A stretch of DNA of 64,000 bases, from NCBI RefSeq assembly GCF_013315695.1, contig NZ_CP054353.1; one strand, 5' to 3'. Under the pieces are notes generated by a model. That model searched no databases and was not told the DNA's origin. It was given only the letters and a program-made list of their open reading frames with translations. The DNA comes from Escherichia coli (GTDB lineage Bacteria > Pseudomonadota > Gammaproteobacteria > Enterobacterales > Enterobacteriaceae). Positions within the stretch are counted from its first letter, which is position 1. Every line of letters starts with the position of its first letter. This document shows positions 2,286 to 46,677 of this stretch, in pieces. Both the position numbers and the translations under genes were made by a program.

Positions 2286-3446
2286 TCAGGTTGGATCAAC
2301 AGGCACTACGTTCTCACTTGGGTAACAGCCCAATACCTTCATCGAACGGGTGATGTCCCCTAACTCTTTCAATGCTTTTTGCATTTCCGCTGATTCAAGA
2401 TTGGCCTGAATATCCAGATAAAACATCTCTTCCCATGGATTACCGTGAATCGGGCGTGACTCCAGACGGGTCATAATCAGATTGTGGTTGCGCAGTACCA
2501 GCAACGCTTCAACCAGCGCACCAGCTTGTTGCCCGGTCGCCATTAACAACGTCGTTTTCGCTGGAACCTGGTCAGACACGTTAATGGCTTTACGTGCCAA
2601 CACCACAAATCGGGTGAAGTTTTGTCGCTGATTCGCTTCAATACGCTCCAGTACCTGCAAACCGTACAAAGTGCCGCCAGCTTCGCTTCCCAACGCAGCA
2701 ACATGCGGTGATTTTGCCTGTGCAACCTTTTCCATTGCCGCAGACGTACTTTCGGTATATTCAATCTTCCAGTGCGGATAACGATTAAGGAATTTGCTGC
2801 ATTGCTGGAATGGCTGCGGATGGCTGTAGACCGTATTGATGGTGGATAAATCAGTAGTGCCGGAGACCAACAAACAATGGTCGATAGTTAACGTCATCTC
2901 GCCAACAATCGACAAACTGGTATGTTGCAGCAGATCGTAAACGTCGTTTATGGCACCGGAGCTGGTATTTTCAATCGGTACGACGGCATAGTCGGCCTGG
3001 CCGGTTTCCACCTGATTAAAAATATCGGCAAATTTGGCGCAGCCACTTTCAATGAATTGCTCAAAGTGACGCGCAGCGTACTGACGAGCGGCAAGATGTG
3101 AATAGGAGCCTTTGGGGCCGAGAAAAGCGATGCGTGCTGAGTGCGGATTAATTTTATTGAGATGTTGCTGGAGCAGTGCCTGCTGAGTTAATACGGAATC
3201 TTCAATGATGAGCTGGAACAGGCGAGTAATGTAATGGGCGTCCAGATGGTGCGCTTTACCGAGCGTAATTAATCTTTCCAGCAAATCGCGTTCGCGATCA
3301 ATATTACGTACCGGGCGATGCGAGAGCAGTTTGGCTTTTCCCACCTCGACGGCCAGTTCGCGTCGCTCTGCCAGTAATGCTAATAATTTTTCATCCAGCG
3401 CGCTGATTTTCTCTCGCAGCGCCAGTAACGGGTTTTCCGATGTCAT
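2286..3446 (-). CDS. pheA: bifunctional chorismate mutase / prephenate dehydratase
   Basis: 386-aa ORF recognised as PheA; preceded on the same strand by the pheL leader peptide and attenuator. Confidence 0.93.
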
Positions 3447-3466: not shown

Positions 3467-3496
3467 AATAAAAAAGGCCCCCCGATTTGGGAGGCC
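3467..3496 (-). terminator. pheA attenuator terminator
   Basis: On the minus strand GGCCTCCCAAATCGGGGGGCC followed by TTTTTTATT, lying between pheL and pheA. Confidence 0.8.
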
Positions 3497-3544
3497 TTAT
3501 TGTTCGTCTTCGCATTCTGTTTCACACGACGAAACGCCTCCCAT

Positions 3545-3592
3545 TCAGGGGAAGGTAAAAAAGAATGCGAAGAAAAACGGTGTGTGTTTCAT
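3545..3592 (-). CDS. pheL: phe operon leader peptide ([15 protein letters not shown])
   Basis: Reverse complement reads ATG AAA CAC ATA CCG TTT TTC TTC GCA TTC TTT TTT ACC TTC CCC TGA, a 15-codon Phe-rich leader; too short for the ORF track. Confidence 0.9.
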   Translation of the reverse strand: [15 protein letters not shown]

Positions 3593-3646
3593 GTTTGTTT
3601 CCTTAAGTGACTTTAGTACAGTACCCGTACTGTTTTCACGCTGTCA

Positions 3647-3695: not shown

Positions 3696-4091
<396 letters not shown>

Positions 4092-4284
4092 TCAAAATGT
4101 GTGATGGAAATCTCATAATTTTGTCACTTTTTGTCAACGAATCTTTTTTGTGAGAAATCGCAGGAAGAGGTGTTTTTTACTTGAGGAATATCTCAAAGCG
4201 AGCCATATTTGATGAGATCGATAGTGACTAAATCGCTTCAGTTTCACAACTAACAGAATAAAAAAACGGCAGCTCAAGGGCTGT

Positions 4285-5709
4285 AATGCCAGTCAGTTAA
4301 GCAACTGACTGGCTCTTTTTCGGGGCTGTGGGGTATTTCCAGGGCCTCTCCTTTACCACTCTCGGGAAGGCCCTTTCCCTTCTTGTCGGTAATTTCACAA
4401 GTTGTCCCATACTTGCAAGATCGCGCATCAGCTCCGGTATACGTCCCGGTGAAGCGCCCTGCAATGTCATCAGCATTCTCATCACCATTCCGCATGATTC
4501 TGAGAAACTCAGTTGATTCGGCCAGTAACCTTTCAGATGTTCCGCCATTTTAATCATCTGATATCTCACCAGATTATAAGCCAGTAAGACACCCCACAGC
4601 TCTTGCTCCACAAGCTCCGGTTTTTTACTTCTCAGCGTCAGCCTGCTCAGTTGCATCGTCTGTTTTATCTCCCTGTATCCCAGTTCGATTTCCCAGCGAT
4701 GACTGTACAGATCCGCCATTTCTCCTCCGGGGAAGCGCATGGCGTCCGTCATCGACGTCAGCAGATGGCAGACTTTTCCTTTGCGCGTCACGGTCAGCAG
4801 GCGGGCTGTCACTTCATTTCCCAGTCCCGGCCACTTTTTTCGTGCCTGCGGGCTGGTTTTCAGCTTCACCAGATGATCGCCTTTACCCAGTTTTCTGATC
4901 TCTTCATATTGCGCTCCCTTTCTGAGAGGTATCATCCAGTGGCGGTGTTCTCCCGCCAGGCTCCAGGCATTTAACAGTCCCAGTGAGTAATAACCTTTAT
5001 CCATTAACGTCAGAGTGTTATCGCCGGTTTGTTCTATAAGTTGCTCAGCAAGCTCATTTTCGCTGTTCTTCATCGTGCCGAAGGCTGCAGCCGTCAGCAG
5101 ATGGCTGGTCAGTTCCATCTGGCAGACCATTTTGACCTGCGGGTAGAGCGCCGGGTTCCCGGCATGTGTCTGGCGGGGGAAGGCTGCATCGTTCTCTGGT
5201 GTATCCGGTGTGCGCCAGAACACACCATCGATGGCCAGCAGGGTCAGGCCGCACCAGTGCGGATGCGGCGTGGCGTTATGCCAGAGCTGCGCTGTTTTCG
5301 TGAACACGCGGCGGACAGCCTCACTTCCCAGGCGCTGGCGGGCCTGAATAACGGCACTGGGGGCAACGAAGGGGCGATTGCCCGGCAGCATGATGTCCAG
5401 GCGATTCACAATCTGGTGAAGAGGTTCTTTACGCTCAAGCGCCATGCCAACAATACACCAGACCATCATTTCGAGGGGAAGACGGCGCTTGCGTAGCGTT
5501 ACAGTACCTGATTCGGCAAGGCAACGAGAGATGAGTTCGGGGTCGAGGTAATCCCCCAGAGAAGTCAGTGGGTTACGCAGAGAATCGTAACGGGATACCA
5601 GATCAAGAGCCTGTCCAATGTGCATAAAAAAATCCGGAAACAAGTGAGCGTTTCCGGATTCTTACACAGCCACTGGATCGGTCAACTGATCCTTAACTGA
5701 TCGGCATTA
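4285..5709 (-). mobile_element. IS4 insertion sequence, complete (about 1425 bp)
   Basis: Imperfect terminal inverted repeats TAATGCCAGTCAGTTAAG (left, from 4285) and TAATGCCGATCAGTTAAG (right, reverse complement ending 5709), 16 of 18 identical, enclosing a single DDE transposase ORF. Confidence 0.88.
4297..5625 (-). CDS. insG: IS4 family transposase
   Basis: ORF 4297..5643; recognised as the IS4 transposase, with the likely start at the internal [16 protein letters not shown] (track ORF is 6 aa longer). Confidence 0.85.
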
Positions 5710-5750
5710 CAGCCCGAAGGCTGGCATTTTTAAATCAGATAAAGTCAGAC

Positions 5751-7064
<1,314 letters not shown>

Positions 7065-14164: not shown

Positions 14165-16921
14165 ATGACCAACTACAGCCTGCGCGCACGCATGATGATT
14201 CTGATCCTGGCACCGACCGTCCTGATTGGTTTATTGCTGAGTATCTTTTTCGTCGTGCATCGCTATAACGACTTGCAGCGTCAACTGGAAGATGCCGGTG
14301 CCAGCATTATTGAGCCGCTTGCAGTTTCTACTGAATATGGCATGAGCCTGCAAAATCGCGAATCTATCGGTCAGTTAATAAGCGTACTGCATCGCCGCCA
14401 TTCCGATATTGTTCGCGCAATTTCGGTTTATGATGAAAATAACCGACTCTTTGTCACCTCCAATTTTCATCTTGATCCTTCATCAATGCAGCTCGGTAGC
14501 AACGTGCCGTTTCCTCGCCAGCTCACTGTCACACGTGACGGCGATATTATGATCCTCCGCACGCCGATTATTTCTGAGAGTTACTCCCCCGACGAATCGC
14601 CCAGTAGCGATGCCAAAAATAGTCAAAATATGTTGGGATATATTGCGCTTGAGCTGGATCTTAAATCGGTTCGCTTGCAGCAATATAAAGAGATCTTTAT
14701 TTCCAGCGTGATGATGCTGTTTTGTATCGGTATTGCGCTTATTTTTGGCTGGCGCTTAATGCGCGATGTAACCGGTCCGATTCGCAATATGGTGAATACC
14801 GTCGACCGCATCCGTCGCGGGCAACTCGACAGCCGGGTGGAAGGATTTATGCTCGGCGAGCTGGATATGCTGAAAAACGGTATCAACTCGATGGCAATGT
14901 CGCTGGCTGCTTATCACGAAGAGATGCAACACAATATCGACCAGGCGACGTCCGATCTGCGTGAAACGCTGGAGCAAATGGAGATTCAGAACGTTGAGTT
15001 GGATCTGGCGAAAAAGCGCGCCCAGGAAGCGGCGCGTATTAAATCCGAGTTTCTGGCAAATATGTCACACGAGCTGCGTACACCACTGAATGGTGTTATT
15101 GGCTTTACCCGCCTGACGCTGAAAACAGAATTAACACCAACGCAGCGCGATCACCTGAATACGATTGAACGTTCGGCAAATAATTTGCTGGCAATTATTA
15201 ATGATGTTCTCGACTTCTCGAAACTGGAAGCCGGTAAGCTGATTCTGGAAAGTATTCCATTCCCACTACGCAGCACGCTGGATGAAGTCGTTACCCTGCT
15301 GGCACATTCTTCTCACGATAAAGGGCTGGAACTGACGCTCAATATTAAAAGCGACGTGCCTGATAACGTGATCGGCGACCCACTACGATTACAGCAAATC
15401 ATCACTAACCTGGTGGGGAATGCAATTAAATTCACCGAGAATGGCAACATTGATATTCTGGTAGAAAAACGTGCGCTGAGTAATACCAAAGTGCAAATTG
15501 AAGTGCAGATTCGGGATACCGGCATTGGTATTCCTGAACGCGATCAATCGCGCTTATTCCAGGCCTTCAGACAGGCTGATGCCAGTATTTCCCGCCGTCA
15601 TGGTGGCACCGGGCTGGGGCTGGTGATTACACAAAAACTGGTTAATGAAATGGGCGGTGATATTTCGTTCCATAGCCAGCCGAATCGTGGTTCAACTTTC
15701 TGGTTCCACATTAATCTCGATCTGAACCCGAACATTATTATCGAAGGGCCATCCACCCAGTGCCTCGCCGGTAAGCGCCTGGCCTATGTCGAACCAAATT
15801 CCGCAGCAGCGCAATGCACGCTGGATATTTTAAGTGAAACGCCGCTGGAAGTGGTTTATAGCCCAACGTTCTCCGCGCTGCCTCCCGCGCATTACGACAT
15901 GATGTTATTAGGCATAGCGGTGACCTTCCGCGAGCCGCTAACAATGCAACATGAGCGATTAGCGAAAGCAGTATCGATGACCGATTTCCTGATGCTGGCA
16001 CTTCCTTGCCATGCACAAGTCAATGCTGAAAAACTTAAGCAAGATGGTATCGGCGCGTGTCTGCTGAAACCATTAACACCTACGCGCCTGTTGCCTGCCC
16101 TGACGGAATTTTGTCATCACAAACAAAACACGCTTTTGCCTGTAACCGATGAAAGTAAGCTGGCAATGACAGTCATGGCGGTTGATGACAACCCCGCTAA
16201 CCTGAAACTTATCGGCGCATTGCTGGAAGATATGGTGCAACATGTGGAACTTTGCGATAGCGGGCATCAGGCGGTTGAACGGGCGAAACAGATGCCGTTC
16301 GATTTGATCTTAATGGATATTCAAATGCCGGACATGGATGGCATTCGGGCCTGCGAACTCATCCACCAACTCCCGCATCAGCAACAAACGCCGGTTATCG
16401 CGGTAACGGCGCATGCAATGGCCGGGCAAAAAGAGAAGCTGCTTGGCGCAGGGATGAGCGATTATCTGGCGAAACCGATTGAAGAAGAGCGATTGCATAA
16501 TTTGTTGTTGCGCTACAAGCCTGGCAGCGGTATTTCCTCTCGCGTCGTGACGCCCGAAGTCAACGAAATTGTGGTGAACCCGAATGCGACCCTCGACTGG
16601 CAACTGGCACTACGCCAGGCAGCAGGAAAAACCGATTTAGCGCGCGATATGCTGCAAATGTTACTCGATTTCCTGCCTGAAGTTCGCAACAAAGTTGAGG
16701 AACAGCTGGTTGGAGAAAACCCGGAAGGCCTGGTTGATTTGATTCATAAACTGCATGGCAGTTGCGGCTATAGCGGTGTGCCGCGTATGAAGAATCTCTG
16801 CCAACTGATCGAACAACAGCTACGTAGCGGTACTAAAGAAGAAGATTTGGAGCCGGAGCTGCTGGAACTGTTAGACGAGATGGATAATGTAGCGCGCGAA
16901 GCCAGCAAAATTCTCGGGTAA
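14165..16921 (+). CDS. barA: hybrid sensor histidine kinase BarA (BarA/UvrY two-component system)
   Basis: 918-aa ORF with N-terminal transmembrane segments, HAMP, HisKA (SHELRTPLN), HATPase, receiver and Hpt domains. Confidence 0.95.
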
Positions 16922-17151: not shown

Positions 17152-18492
17152 TTAACGCACCATGCACGGGCGCTTGTTATCAAACGTCCAGCCAGGAATC
17201 AGGTACTGCATTCCCATCGCATCGTCACGCGCGCCAAGCCCGTGTTTCTGATACAGCTCGTGGGCTTTCATCACCTGATCCATATCGATTTCTACGCCCA
17301 ATCCTGGTTTTTGCGGCACCTGTACCAGCCCGCCTTTGATCTCAAACGGTTCTTTGGTCAGACGCTGATTGCCTTCCTGCCAGATCCAGTGCGTATCAAT
17401 AGCAGTAATTTTACCCGGTGCAGCAGCGGCTACATGGGTAAACATCGCCAGGGAAATATCGAAGTGGTTGTTAGAGTGTGAACCCCAGGTCAGGCCAAAT
17501 TCATGGCACATTTGCGCCACACGTACCGAACCTTGCATCGTCCAGAAATGCGGATCCGCCAGCGGGATATCAACGGATTGCAGGGAGAGCGTATGGCCCA
17601 TCTGCCGCCAGTCGGTGGCGATCATATTGGTTGCGGTCGGCAGGCCTGTCGCGCGACGGAACTCTGCCATCACTTCACGCCCGGAGAAACCTTGCTCCGC
17701 ACCACACGGATCTTCTGCATAAGCCAGCGAACCTTTCAGGTATGTACCAATTTTAATCGCTTCGTTCAGCGACCAGGCACCGTTAGGATCGAGGGTAATA
17801 CGCGCCTGTGGGAAGCGTTGCGCCAGTGCCACAATAGATTCTGCTTCTTCTTCCCCGGCCAGTACACCGCCCTTCAGTTTGAAATCGTTGAAGCCATATT
17901 TTTCATATGCCGCTTCCGCCAGGCGCACCACCGCATCCGGCGTCATCGCTTCTTCGTGACGCAGGCGATACCAGTCACATTGATCATCCGGCTGGCTTTG
18001 ATACGGCAGCGGTGTGGCTTTGCGATTACCGACGAAGAACAGATAACCGAGCATTTCGACTTCGCTACGCTGTTGACCATCGCCCAGCAGCGATGCCACG
18101 TTAACCCCCAGATGCTGCCCCAGCAGATCCAGCATTGCCGCTTCTATCCCGGTAACCACATGAATAGTGGTCCGCAGGTCAAATGTCTGCAAACCGCGCC
18201 CGCCGGCATCACGATCGGCAAATGTATTACGCACCAGCGTCAGAACGTTTTTGTATTCACCCAGCGTTTTACCCACCACCAGCGGAATCGCATCTTCCAG
18301 CGTTTTACGGATTTTCTCGCCGCCGGGAATTTCCCCTACCCCAGTGTGACCAGAATTATCTTTGATAATCACAATATTACGCGTGAAGAACGGTGCGTGT
18401 GCACCACTCAGATTCATCAGCATACTGTCATGGCCCGCCACCGGGATGACCTGCATTTCAGTAACAACAGGCGTCGAAAATTGAGAACTCAT
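17152..18492 (-). CDS. gudD: glucarate dehydratase
   Basis: Enolase-superfamily ORF; track ORF (454 aa) starts 8 codons early, probable true start at MSSQF...; paralogous to the adjacent gudX. Confidence 0.9.
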
Positions 18493-18512
18493 CTTTATGT
18501 CCTTTTTCAAAA

Positions 18513-19853
18513 TCAATGACGGCCGAAAACGGGACGTTTACGGTCAAAGGTCCAGCCGGGGATCAGGTACTGCATCGGGCCCGCGTCGTTACGCGCACCG
18601 CCAGGCAGACGTTTATAGGCCTCATGCGCCTTTTGTACCTGCTCCCAGTCCAGTTCCACGCCCAGACCGGGCGCATCAGGAACGGCAATTTTTCCATTTT
18701 TAATCTCCAGCGGATTTTTGGTCAGGCGACAATCGCCCTCCTGCCAAATCCAGTGGGTATCGATAGCGGTAGGATTACCCGGTGCCGCCGCGCCCACATG
18801 GGTAAACATCGCCAGAGAGATATCAAAGTGGTTATTGGAATGGCAGCCCCAGGTCAGCCCCCAGTCGTCGCAAAGCTGCGCTACGCGGACTGCACCGGAA
18901 AGCGTCCAGAAGTGCGGGTCGGCAAGTGGAATATCTACCGCATTGAGCATCACCGCATGGCCCATTTCGCGCCAGTTGGTGGCGATCATATTAGTCGCGA
19001 CGGGCAAGCCGGTCGCCCGCCGAAATTCCGCCATCACTTCACCTCCGGAGAAACCCTGTTCTGCGCCACACGGATCTTCGGCATAGGTGAGAACATCATT
19101 CAGCCCTTTGCACAGAGAAATAGCTTCATCAAGCAGCCATGCTCCGTTGGGATCAACGGTAATCCGCGCATCCGGGAAGCGTTTCTTCAATGCACGAACA
19201 GTGTCGATTTCTTGCTCGCCAGGTAACACTCCGCCCTTAAGTTTGAAATCTTTAAAGCCATAGCGATCCTGTGAAGCTTCCGCCAGACGCACAACGGCTT
19301 CGCTGTTCATCGCTTTCTGATGCCGCAATTGATACCACTCATGGTTGCCCGGCGTATTTTCCAGATAAGGAAGATCGGTTTTGGTCCGATCACCGATATA
19401 AAACAGATAACCGAGAACGGTAATAGCATCACGTTGCTTGCCTGGCCCTAACAGTTCGCAGACCGGAACATTCAGCGCCTTACCTAGCAGGTCAAGCAAG
19501 GCGGCTTCCAGCGCCGCCACGGCATTAACGCGCAATTCAAAAGTCCAGGCACCTTTGCCGAAGGTATCAAAATCGGCTGCCTGATTACCTTTATGCACCT
19601 GCTGAACCACTTTATTCAGGCGCGCAACTTCCTGGCCCAGCACCATCGGAATAGCCTCGACCAGTGTCTGATAAATCACCTCTCCGCCCGGCGCTTCACC
19701 AATGCCGGTATGCCCGGCGTTATCGGTGAGTACCACAATATTGCGGGTGAAATATGCGTTATGTGCACCACCAATATTAAGCAACATGCTATCGTGCCCG
19801 GCGACCGGAATGACTTTCATATCAGTAATAACAGGACTGGATTGTGTCGTCAT
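18513..19853 (-). CDS. gudX: glucarate dehydratase-related protein
   Basis: 446-aa ORF highly similar to the downstream gudD product (shared [20 protein letters not shown] motifs). Confidence 0.9.
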
Positions 19854-22108: not shown

Positions 22109-22891
22109 TTAGGAACTTATCTCTCCATCCTGACCCGATGGCGCACTGAACTCAACCCTTTCATTTTCAGGAAGCAGACCCCGCCAGCCAAATTGTGATA
22201 ACGCCTGCATCCAGGTGTCGTCCAGGCCCGCGTGAATAGTCAGCGGCTCGCCAGTAAAAGGATGCGTCAATGACAACTGACTGGCATGCAGCATTAACCG
22301 CTGAAGGCCAAAATGTTCAGCACCGCTGCGATTCTGGCGTAAATCACCATGTTTGCTGTCGCCAATAATCGGGTGGCGCAAATGGGCAAGATGGCGACGG
22401 AGCTGGTGCTTACGTCCGGTTTTCGGCTCCAGTTCCACCAGGCCGTAGCGCGTGGTCGGGTAACGTCCGGTCGCTACCGGCATTTCTACGGTCGCCAGAC
22501 CGCGATAATGCGTCACTGCTGGCTGCGGGCCTTTATCTTCGCGGGCAAATTTATCAGCGATTTTGTCCAGTTCTTCCACCAGTGGATAATCCAGCACCGC
22601 TTCTTCCATCAACCAGCCGCGCACAATCGCATGATAACGTTTCTGGATTTGGTGCTGTTCAAACTGTTGTGCCAGCAGCCGTCCGGCCTCGCTGGATAAT
22701 CCCATCAACAACACACCAGAAGTGGGTCGGTCCAGACGATGAGCAGTAAACACATGCTGGCCTATCTGGTCACGCACGGTTTGCATGACCACTACTTTCT
22801 CGTCGCGATCCAGCCAGCTGCGGTGAACCAGCCAGCCGGAGGGTTTATTTACCGCAACCAGCCATTCATCCTGATAGAGTATTTCCAGCAT
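22109..22891 (-). CDS. truC: tRNA pseudouridine65 synthase
   Basis: 260-aa ORF with RluA-family pseudouridine synthase motif ([12 protein letters not shown]). Confidence 0.88.
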
Positions 22892-23220
22892 TAGCTCGCA
22901 TCATCCGCAAAAAGAGCATCCAGTTTTTCCAGCTCAGCCAGAATAAGCGCGCGTTGCGGGTGGTCCGTCGCCAGCGCCATTTCATAATAGGGAGCAACGG
23001 CAAAAGCGCCCGGTAACGGCTGGTTGTTTTCTAACAAATCGTGCATTCGCGGGATCAGCACCCACTGCAACCACTCCAGTGGTTCCATGGTGTCCATAAA
23101 GAACGGTTGGGTACTATTAAATTGATGCGGCTGGGGTTCATCGTTTCGCCAGTGCTGATGTTCACGCAGTAACGCTTCAAGCGCCTGCAACTGGAAACGA
23201 ACGCGGTCATGAGTGGTCAT
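22891..23220 (-). CDS. yqcC: DUF446 family protein YqcC
   Basis: 109-aa ORF, overlaps truC start by 1 nt; position between truC and csrB as in E. coli. Confidence 0.8.
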   Translation of the reverse strand: MTTHDRVRFQLQALEALLREHQHWRNDEPQPHQFNSTQPFFMDTMEPLEWLQWVLIPRMHDLLENNQPLPGAFAVAPYYEMALATDHPQRALILAELEKLDALFADDAS

Positions 23221-23262
23221 AAAGCAACCTCAATAAGAAAAACTGCCGCGAAGGATAGCAGG

Positions 23263-23622
23263 AATAAAAAAAGGGAGCACTGTATTCACAGTGCTCCCGG
23301 TTCGTTTCGCAGCATTCCAGCTACTTTTGTTGCTCCCTGCTCATCCTTGACAACTTTTCCTCTGGCCTTGCGGCCAATCGTTCATCCTGAACTATTGCTT
23401 CCTGCTCACACCACCCCGATGTGATACTTCATCCTGAAGTGTCCCTGGCCTTCCTGACCCACCGAATCATCCTGACCGGTTCTCATTCTCCATCCTGGAG
23501 GTGTCCTTTAACGCGTCCTGCGTCATCCTCTTCGCTTCATCCAGAAGCCTTTCCCTGAAACACCATCCTGGTGTGTCCTTCAGAAGTGTCATCATCCTGA
23601 TGTTCACTTCGTTGTCTGACTC
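23263..23622 (-). ncRNA. csrB: CsrB small RNA (CsrA-sequestering)
   Basis: Minus strand begins GAGTCAGACAACGAAGTGAACATCAGGATGATG... and ends in GGAGCACTGTGAATACAGTGCTCCC + T-run; many repeated CAGGATG/AGGA motifs (plus strand shows repeated catcctg). Confidence 0.93.
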
Positions 23623-23841
23623 CCTGTCGACGAAGATAGAATCGTCTTTTTCGCGAAGTCTTACAAGGCGCTTACAGACAATGCCTTAAGGAAAATTTCA
23701 TATGAAAGTTAAGAATTGACAAGCAATATATTGATTTTAAATGAAAATAACGATTCTTATCTTTTTAAGTATTCGCTTATTTCCTGGCGATCTCCTACAG
23801 AGTCTGTAAGAGATCTCTCACAACAAGATGGGGTATTTGGA

Positions 23842-24387
23842 TTACAGAAGAGGCTTAAGTTGATTAAGGAATTCCGCAAGATTTGAGGCTAAATGCGTCC
23901 GTTTGCGTGTTCCCAGCGTCTCTTTGCACACTTCACCGGAGAGATTACACACCGAGATGACCTCTAACTCTTCTTCCAGCGTCGCGATAAATAGCGTGGG
24001 CGGCAGTTTTAGCCTTTTCTGAGTCACCAGATGACCAATCAGATTTTCCTGCACCCGACGGAAGTCGTCTTCACTCCAGGTTTGCAGCAATGTCAGTTTG
24101 ATATCGCCAAACTGCGCGTGCATATCCCCGGCAAACTGAGTCGTATAAAAGGTATGAATTGTGGGTTGTATCACAATATCAAAAGCGCGTTCAACCGCGT
24201 TTACATTTTGTTCCCCGGTAAACGGCTGGGGTTGCCAGTATACGGCGTCTTCGGTGGTTGAAATAATGCACGGTGAAGGAACGCCGTACAGTTCCTCACT
24301 CAACGGCCAGCTTTTATGCTCTTCATGCCACGCATCGCAGTAGCGTGCAGTAAAATCTTTCAGGGCTTGTGCGGTCAAATCGTCCAC
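23842..24387 (-). CDS. syd: SecY-interacting protein Syd
   Basis: 181-aa [26 protein letters not shown]...; recognised as Syd. Confidence 0.88.
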
Positions 24388-41851: not shown

Positions 41852-42057
41852 ACTTCCTGAGCCGGAACGAAAAGTTTTATCGGAATGCGTGTTCTGGTGA
41901 ACTTTTGGCTTACGGTTGTGATGTTGTGTTGTTGTGTTTGCAATTGGTCTGCGATTCAGACCATGGTAGCAAAGCTACCTTTTTTCACTTCCTGTACATT
42001 TACCCTGTCTGTCCATAGTGATTAATGTAGCACCGCCTAATTGCGGTGCTTTTTTTT
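41852..42057 (+). ncRNA. gcvB: GcvB small RNA (Hfq-dependent)
   Basis: Starts ACTTCCTGAGCCGGAACG a few bp after a TATAGT -10; contains GU-rich block GTTGTGATGTTGTGTTGTTGTGTTTG; ends in GCACCGCCTAATTGCGGTGC + T8 terminator. Confidence 0.92.
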
Positions 42058-46380: not shown

Positions 46381-46457
<77 letters not shown>

Positions 46458-46490
46458 ATTAAAATTTGATGAAGTAAAGCAGTACGGTGA

Positions 46491-46567
<77 letters not shown>

Positions 46568-46600
46568 ATCAAAATTTAATGAAGTAAAGTAGTACGGTGA

Positions 46601-46677
<77 letters not shown>

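Follow-up and report, generated by a model that had tools for sequence, protein, structure and literature searches.

The window analysed here, a stretch of 64,000 nucleotides from Escherichia coli, carries on its minus strand a gene for an untranslated RNA, csrB, lying between syd and yqcC in the same order as in K-12 (Table 1). A scan of the whole window with Rfam 15 returned a match to the CsrB family (RF00018) at 23263-23622 (minus strand) that scored 382.9 bits against a gathering score of 71 (E = 2.2e-111), covers model positions 1-356 of 356, is not truncated, and has posterior probabilities of about 1 throughout. This covariance-model search had been proposed as a check by a sequence-only reading of the same DNA, which had named csrB from its repeated motifs, and the outcome bears the name out over the full length of the model. 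Alignment with the annotated gene extends the feature slightly: the K-12 MG1655 ncRNA csrB (b4408, 369 nt) maps to 23263-23631 with 367 of 369 nucleotides identical (99.5%), which places the 5' end at 23631, 9 nt upstream of the end of the Rfam match at 23622, and these additional nucleotides contribute a 22nd GGA (within CAGGGAG). The interval first given for the gene, 23263-23622, is consequently right as the extent of the RF00018 model, but stops short of the annotated K-12 transcript. The mapped gene agrees in length with the 369 nt reported for CsrB (PMC5027483), and the RNA of the window agrees in its number of GGA motifs with the 22 reported for that of E. coli (PMC7652899).

Table 1 Features in and around csrB, in window positions (strand as given; distances relative to +1 at 23631)
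Feature	Position	Strand	Evidence or description
syd (upstream neighbour)	23842..24387	-	NF003439, SecY-interacting protein, 286.7 bits; RefSeq annotation
UvrY-P binding site	23805..23822	-	18-nt inverted repeat TGTGAGAGATCTCTTACA; exact match
Partial extra UvrY half-site	23791..23799	-	TGTAGGAGA; 5 bp downstream of the palindrome
IHF-consensus match	23724..23736	-	AATCAATATATTG (consensus WATCAANNNNTTR); perfect match, -105 to -93
Putative weak sigma-70 promoter	23638..23666	-	TTGTAA (-35 to -30), 17-nt spacer, GATTCT (-12 to -7)
GGA sites 20 (+296) and 21 (+314)	23316..23336	-	Sequence identical to K-12
Equivalent of the RNase E 'necessary cleavage site'	23301..23305	-	A327 = 23305, A331 = 23301, in GAAACGAAC
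Intrinsic terminator	23263..23298	-	11-bp stem (23298-23273), 7 G-C pairs, 4-nt loop, UUUUUUU AUU; terminator scan
yqcC (downstream neighbour)	22891..23220	-	Pfam PF04287 (DUF446), 118.8 bits; RefSeq annotation
barA	14165..16921	+	NCBIfam NF008318 (BarA equivalog), 1623.9 bits against a cut-off of 890, residues 1-917

The gene for the sensor kinase BarA had been placed about 6 kb from the RNA, and we indeed find barA at the position of its K-12 counterpart, with its end 6.3 kb from the 3' end of csrB; neither uvrY nor csrD is encoded within the window. Close to barA, an open reading frame at 17152-18516 occupies the position of gudD and encodes 454 aa from an upstream TTG, compared with 446 aa in K-12. 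This reading frame is long enough for a full-length gudD, so the window shows no sign of the truncation present in strain 2016C-3878, where the csrB region is otherwise identical but gudD breaks off and gives way to Mu-like phage genes (Mor activator, gp16 family). Several further structured RNAs were recovered elsewhere in the window. These are a full-length GcvB sRNA (RF00022) at 41852-42057 on the plus strand (199 bits against 42), with its terminator; a Phe leader (RF01859) at 3468-3593 on the minus strand (132.2 bits), which is the pheL attenuator upstream of pheA (2286-3446, minus strand), both features being likewise annotated in matching genomes; and three tandem tRNA-Met (CAU) genes at 46381-46677 on the plus strand, 110 nt apart and each scoring 61.4 bits with Rfam, which we take to be the metZ-metW-metV initiator tRNA cluster of E. 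coli.

The sequence character that first drew attention to the locus, a run of CAGGATG and AGGA units, is genuine and far in excess of chance. We counted 6 CAGGATG, 9 CAGGA[TAC]G, 14 AGGA and 21 GGA on the minus strand of 23263-23622, where the rest of the window leads one to expect 0.04, 0.11, 0.81 and 4.4, respectively, per 360 nt, and the opposite strand of the same interval holds between 0 and 2 copies of each of the four motifs. The window contains 19 CAGGATG in all, a number reached by no dinucleotide-preserving shuffle of it, and 6 of the 19 fall within csrB, all on the minus strand. In sliding scans of both strands csrB ranks first in the window for GGA (22 against 16 per 360 nt for the runner-up) and for CAGGA[TAC]G (9 against 2 per 369 nt). 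The 7-nt motif is the stronger of these two signals, because the 369-nt RNA, with its 22 GGA and 9 CAGGA(U/A/C)G, is 64% purine, and a composition of this kind already yields many GGA: shuffles of its own bases gave 12.3 +/- 2.8, with a maximum of 23 in 2000 shuffles. The second GGA-richest stretch of the window, 4672-5031 on the minus strand (16 GGA per 360 nt), lies within the coding sequence of an IS4 transposase and has no enrichment of CAGGA[UAC]G; its GGA richness probably reflects codon or composition bias.

To describe the repeat as periodic, as had been done, was an overstatement. Tandem Repeats Finder, run at its minimum score, reported no array in the csrB region, and successive GGA motifs are separated by anything from 4 to 32 nt; we therefore rejected a strictly periodic tandem repeat in favour of dispersed motifs.

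Most of the motifs are exposed in the folded RNA. Projected onto the Rfam consensus, which comprises 12 hairpins including the terminator, 11 of the 22 GGA lie in hairpin loops, 9 are single-stranded (8 in consensus linkers, together with site 1 just 5' of the RF00018 model) and 2 are in stems, one of these being site 22, in the terminator. A count of GGA in predicted loops had been suggested as a second check, and most are thus found in loops or single-stranded segments. The RNA also folds well on its own account: its minimum free energy is -118 kcal/mol (z = -4.45), none of 100 shuffles folded as well, and the minimum-free-energy structure places 9 GGA in hairpin loops. The strong terminator claimed for the 3' end is present, its 11-bp stem being followed by TTTTTTT, and it forms the last helix in both the Rfam consensus and the minimum-free-energy fold. 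An absent Rfam match or an absent terminator had been named as grounds for abandoning csrB, and both the match and the terminator are there.

Just upstream of the terminator, the segment GAAACGAAC is unstructured and identical to that of K-12. RNase E cuts CsrB at A327/A331, the 'necessary cleavage site', and CsrA bound at GGA sites 20 and 21 is reported to protect the RNA from this enzyme (PMC5027483).

The region upstream of the gene contains the control elements described for csrB. The palindrome TGTGAGAGATCTCTTACA occurs once in the window, where 0.05 sites would be expected at up to 3 mismatches, and its centre at 23813/23814 corresponds to -182/-183 from a +1 at 23631. The DNase-I-footprinted site for phosphorylated UvrY in E. 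coli csrB is centred at -183/-182 (PMC4682653), and because the two distances are equal, the palindrome provides independent support for the assignment of +1. A partial extra half-site like that in Table 1 has been described for both E. coli and Salmonella csrB (PMC4682653). Further downstream, PMC4682653 places a putative IHF site of csrB between two regions of UvrY crosslinking; by its consensus match, and by its location relative to these regions as given there, the sequence at 23724-23736 is a candidate for this site, in a window that holds 6 matches to the IHF consensus against 2.9 expected by chance. The promoter is likely to be the sigma-70 sequence that we read by eye upstream of the +1 implied by the K-12 annotation. 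A sigma-70 consensus scan of both strands of 23000-24000 called no promoter; the scan missed this one because its -10 element matches the consensus at only 3 of 6 positions, and a weak promoter fits dependence on an activator.

The best explanation of these observations, to which we assign a probability of about 0.98, is that 23631 to 23263 on the minus strand is E. coli csrB, encoding the 369-nt untranslated RNA that sequesters CsrA. CsrB is a textbook global regulator and, to our knowledge, the first sRNA shown to act through protein sequestration. The RNA of the window belongs with the CsrB/RsmB family in that it scores above the gathering threshold on the full RF00018 model, exposes many GGA motifs in hairpin loops and linkers, and is non-coding with a Rho-independent terminator; and it is the csrB orthologue in that it lies between syd and yqcC, is nearly identical to the K-12 gene, and has the UvrY-P palindrome centred near -183. 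Identity, boundaries, motif number and placement, terminator, UvrY site, synteny and conservation were all observed directly, and the earlier identification as csrB accordingly holds on the full-length Rfam match, the K-12 alignment, the synteny, the UvrY site and BarA. That the RNA also binds multiple CsrA dimers and antagonises CsrA in vivo, as is known for the K-12 gene (PMC5027483, PMC7652899), may be expected from its 99.5% identity to the K-12 molecule and its retention of all 22 GGA.

On this basis, and taking the individual steps (CsrA binding, activation by UvrY and IHF, decay through RNase E and CsrD) from the literature (PMC4682653, PMC5027483, PMC7652899), the locus would be expected to work as follows. 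BarA, encoded 6.3 kb away, would phosphorylate UvrY, the activator of csrB transcription, and phosphorylated UvrY would bind the 18-nt palindrome at -183/-182, while a bend introduced at the IHF-type site at about -100 would probably allow it to reach the weak sigma-70 promoter. Transcription would stop at the strong intrinsic terminator, and the 22 GGA of the resulting RNA, presented in hairpin loops and linkers, could bind many CsrA dimers at once, so that CsrA would be titrated from its mRNA targets and its control of them relieved. Turnover of CsrB would begin with an RNase E cut in the unstructured GAAACGAAC before the terminator, a cut that CsrA on GGA sites 20 and 21 would block and for which CsrD would overcome the block.

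The gene shares with K-12 csrB its 369 nt, its 22 GGA, the terminator, the RNase E site, the palindrome at -183/-182, the syd and yqcC neighbours and the distance to barA, and differs from it by 2 substitutions in the RNA and 5 upstream. The first of the former, at +52 (C in K-12, A here), changes CAGGAC to AAGGAC at GGA site 3, and the second, at +340 (G in K-12, A here), turns a G-U pair of the terminator stem into A-U; at both positions it is K-12 that departs from the Rfam family consensus, with which the window agrees. The upstream substitutions relative to MG1655 lie at -194, -99, -96, -92 and -87 (window 23825 and 23718-23730). That at -194 is just beyond the UvrY palindrome. The other four form a cluster, and because -99 and -96 are unspecified positions (NNNN) of the IHF consensus, the core of that site is preserved. 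Elsewhere the 700-bp alignment shows hardly any change. The A at +52, by which site 3 becomes an A-N-GGA, the A-U pair in the terminator and the four changes around the IHF-type site, from -99 to -87, could together slightly shift CsrB levels or the capacity of the RNA to bind CsrA. We nevertheless consider it improbable that this allele differs functionally from that of K-12.

The gene is close to universal in the species. An 801-bp query around the locus matches 5425 of 5426 complete E. coli genomes, flanked by syd and yqcC annotations, and the 369-nt csrB is likewise present in 5425 of 5426, with at least 99% identity in 5176 of the 5425. Copies identical over the 369 nt exist in other complete genomes, and at least eight of them match the whole 801-bp stretch, including the promoter, at 100% identity. 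Among the exceptions, one genome of the 5426 has no match to any query that we used, one record with a csrB match is a plasmid, csrB matches at two places in a few genomes, and the match in MARGA_3 is split, its best place covering only nt 92-369.

These data bear on the notion that the window holds a decayed or silenced copy, recognisable as csrB yet no longer transcribed or functional. Such a copy might be suspected from the five upstream and two internal substitutions relative to K-12, and from the IS4-associated rearrangement 17.6 kb away. The substitutions, however, are poor signs of decay: both of those in the RNA agree with the Rfam consensus, one of them turning G-U into A-U in the terminator stem, and the recurrence of the whole 801-bp stretch, with its promoter, at 100% identity in other complete genomes speaks against decay. 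Furthermore, the cis elements are intact throughout, from the palindrome, the IHF-like site with its core and the -35 and -10 hexamers to the 22 GGA (sites 20 and 21 among them), the A327/A331 segment cut by RNase E and the terminator. We regard loss of function of this kind as very improbable, and an ordinary, intact csrB as the far better account.

A still smaller likelihood attaches to the proposal that the RNA is not CsrB but another RNA of the CsrB/RsmB clan, for instance CsrC or one of the RsmX/Y/Z type. E. coli CsrC resembles CsrB in sequestering CsrA and in being controlled by BarA-UvrY through an upstream inverted repeat (PMC4682653, PMC7652899), but it is encoded at another locus, its repeat, TGTGAGACATTGCCGATA, is less symmetrical, and it has no apparent IHF site (PMC4682653). 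The RsmX, RsmY and RsmZ RNAs of Pseudomonas are similarly hairpin RNAs with GGA loops that titrate RsmA/RsmE under an orthologous two-component system (PMC7652899); they differ in being much shorter, with fewer sites, and the species that carry them have no apparent CsrD orthologue, CsrA-family proteins protecting the sRNAs from decay (PMC5027483). GGA-rich hairpins, a terminator and an upstream site of the UvrY/GacA type are common to all of these, and the upstream repeat of csrC even begins with the same TGTGAGA. Against this, cmscan, which retains the best family per clan, retained CsrB over the full model; the RNA is 99.5% identical to K-12 csrB and occupies the same place between syd and yqcC; and the palindrome equals the csrB version exactly, and not the TGTGAGACATTGCCGATA of csrC. 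The upstream features of the window match the csrB versions generally, rather than those of CsrC, and the Rfam match, the K-12 annotation and the alignment already suffice to refute another clan member.

Finally, that the region encodes a small protein, with the repeats as repeated codons, is no more likely: four ORFs of 45-71 aa do overlap the csrB interval, but none has a match to a Pfam family at E up to 0.1, the irregular motif spacing (4-32 nt) means that no reading frame is held by the motifs, a covariance model of sequence plus structure fits from end to end, and the curated K-12 record gives the gene as ncRNA. We consequently rejected a coding reading, as had been done from the sequence when the region was said to hold no credible ORF, and retain csrB as the identity of the locus.

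Gene order at the left end of the window departs from that of K-12. The sequence there runs through aroF, tyrA, pheA, pheL and raiA (ORFs to 4037) into an IS4 copy (transposase ORF 4297-5643, minus strand), which links raiA directly to eno (junction region 3696-7049) at a distance of about 17.6 kb from csrB. To the right of IS4 come eno, which is annotated in matching genomes, and, further on, relA; relA was assigned by collinearity with the K-12 annotation relA-rlmD-barA, and aroF and tyrA by the annotation of strain AF3. Between eno and relA there presumably lie pyrG, mazG, mazF and mazE, as in the K-12 gene order. The raiA and eno regions are about 170 kb apart in genomes of the K-12 type, and of 5426 complete genomes TW10690 alone spans the raiA-IS4-eno arrangement in one piece. 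Both parental junctions, raiA-IS4-bamD and IS4-eno, occur in strain AF3, where they are about 166 kb apart and their IS4 copies have opposite orientations. Judged from these arrangements, the junction in the window looks like the product of recombination between two IS4 copies, inverting about 166 kb, or else like a join made across IS4 during assembly. A real inversion of this size, if true, would place the whole barA-csrB region in a different replication context.

The csrB described here is already known: a known gene in its known place, intact and ordinary, and its presence confirms only that the window is an ordinary segment of the E. coli chromosome. The practical consequences are minor. 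Coordinates based on Rfam cut the real transcript short by 9 nt at its 5' end and so omit one GGA site. Moreover, no feature was found over csrB in any of the 15 PGAP RefSeq E. coli records listed, and the record of 2016C-3878 (L001, 9060-9680) annotates nothing between syd and yqcC, whereas that of MG1655 does annotate csrB; since the K-12 record annotates it, its omission elsewhere is a gap in annotation, and not an absence of the gene. As long as PGAP records lack it, scans that work from sequence alone will keep flagging csrB. Most PGAP-annotated RefSeq E. coli records leave csrB unannotated, and a well-known sRNA is thereby invisible in most public annotations of the species.
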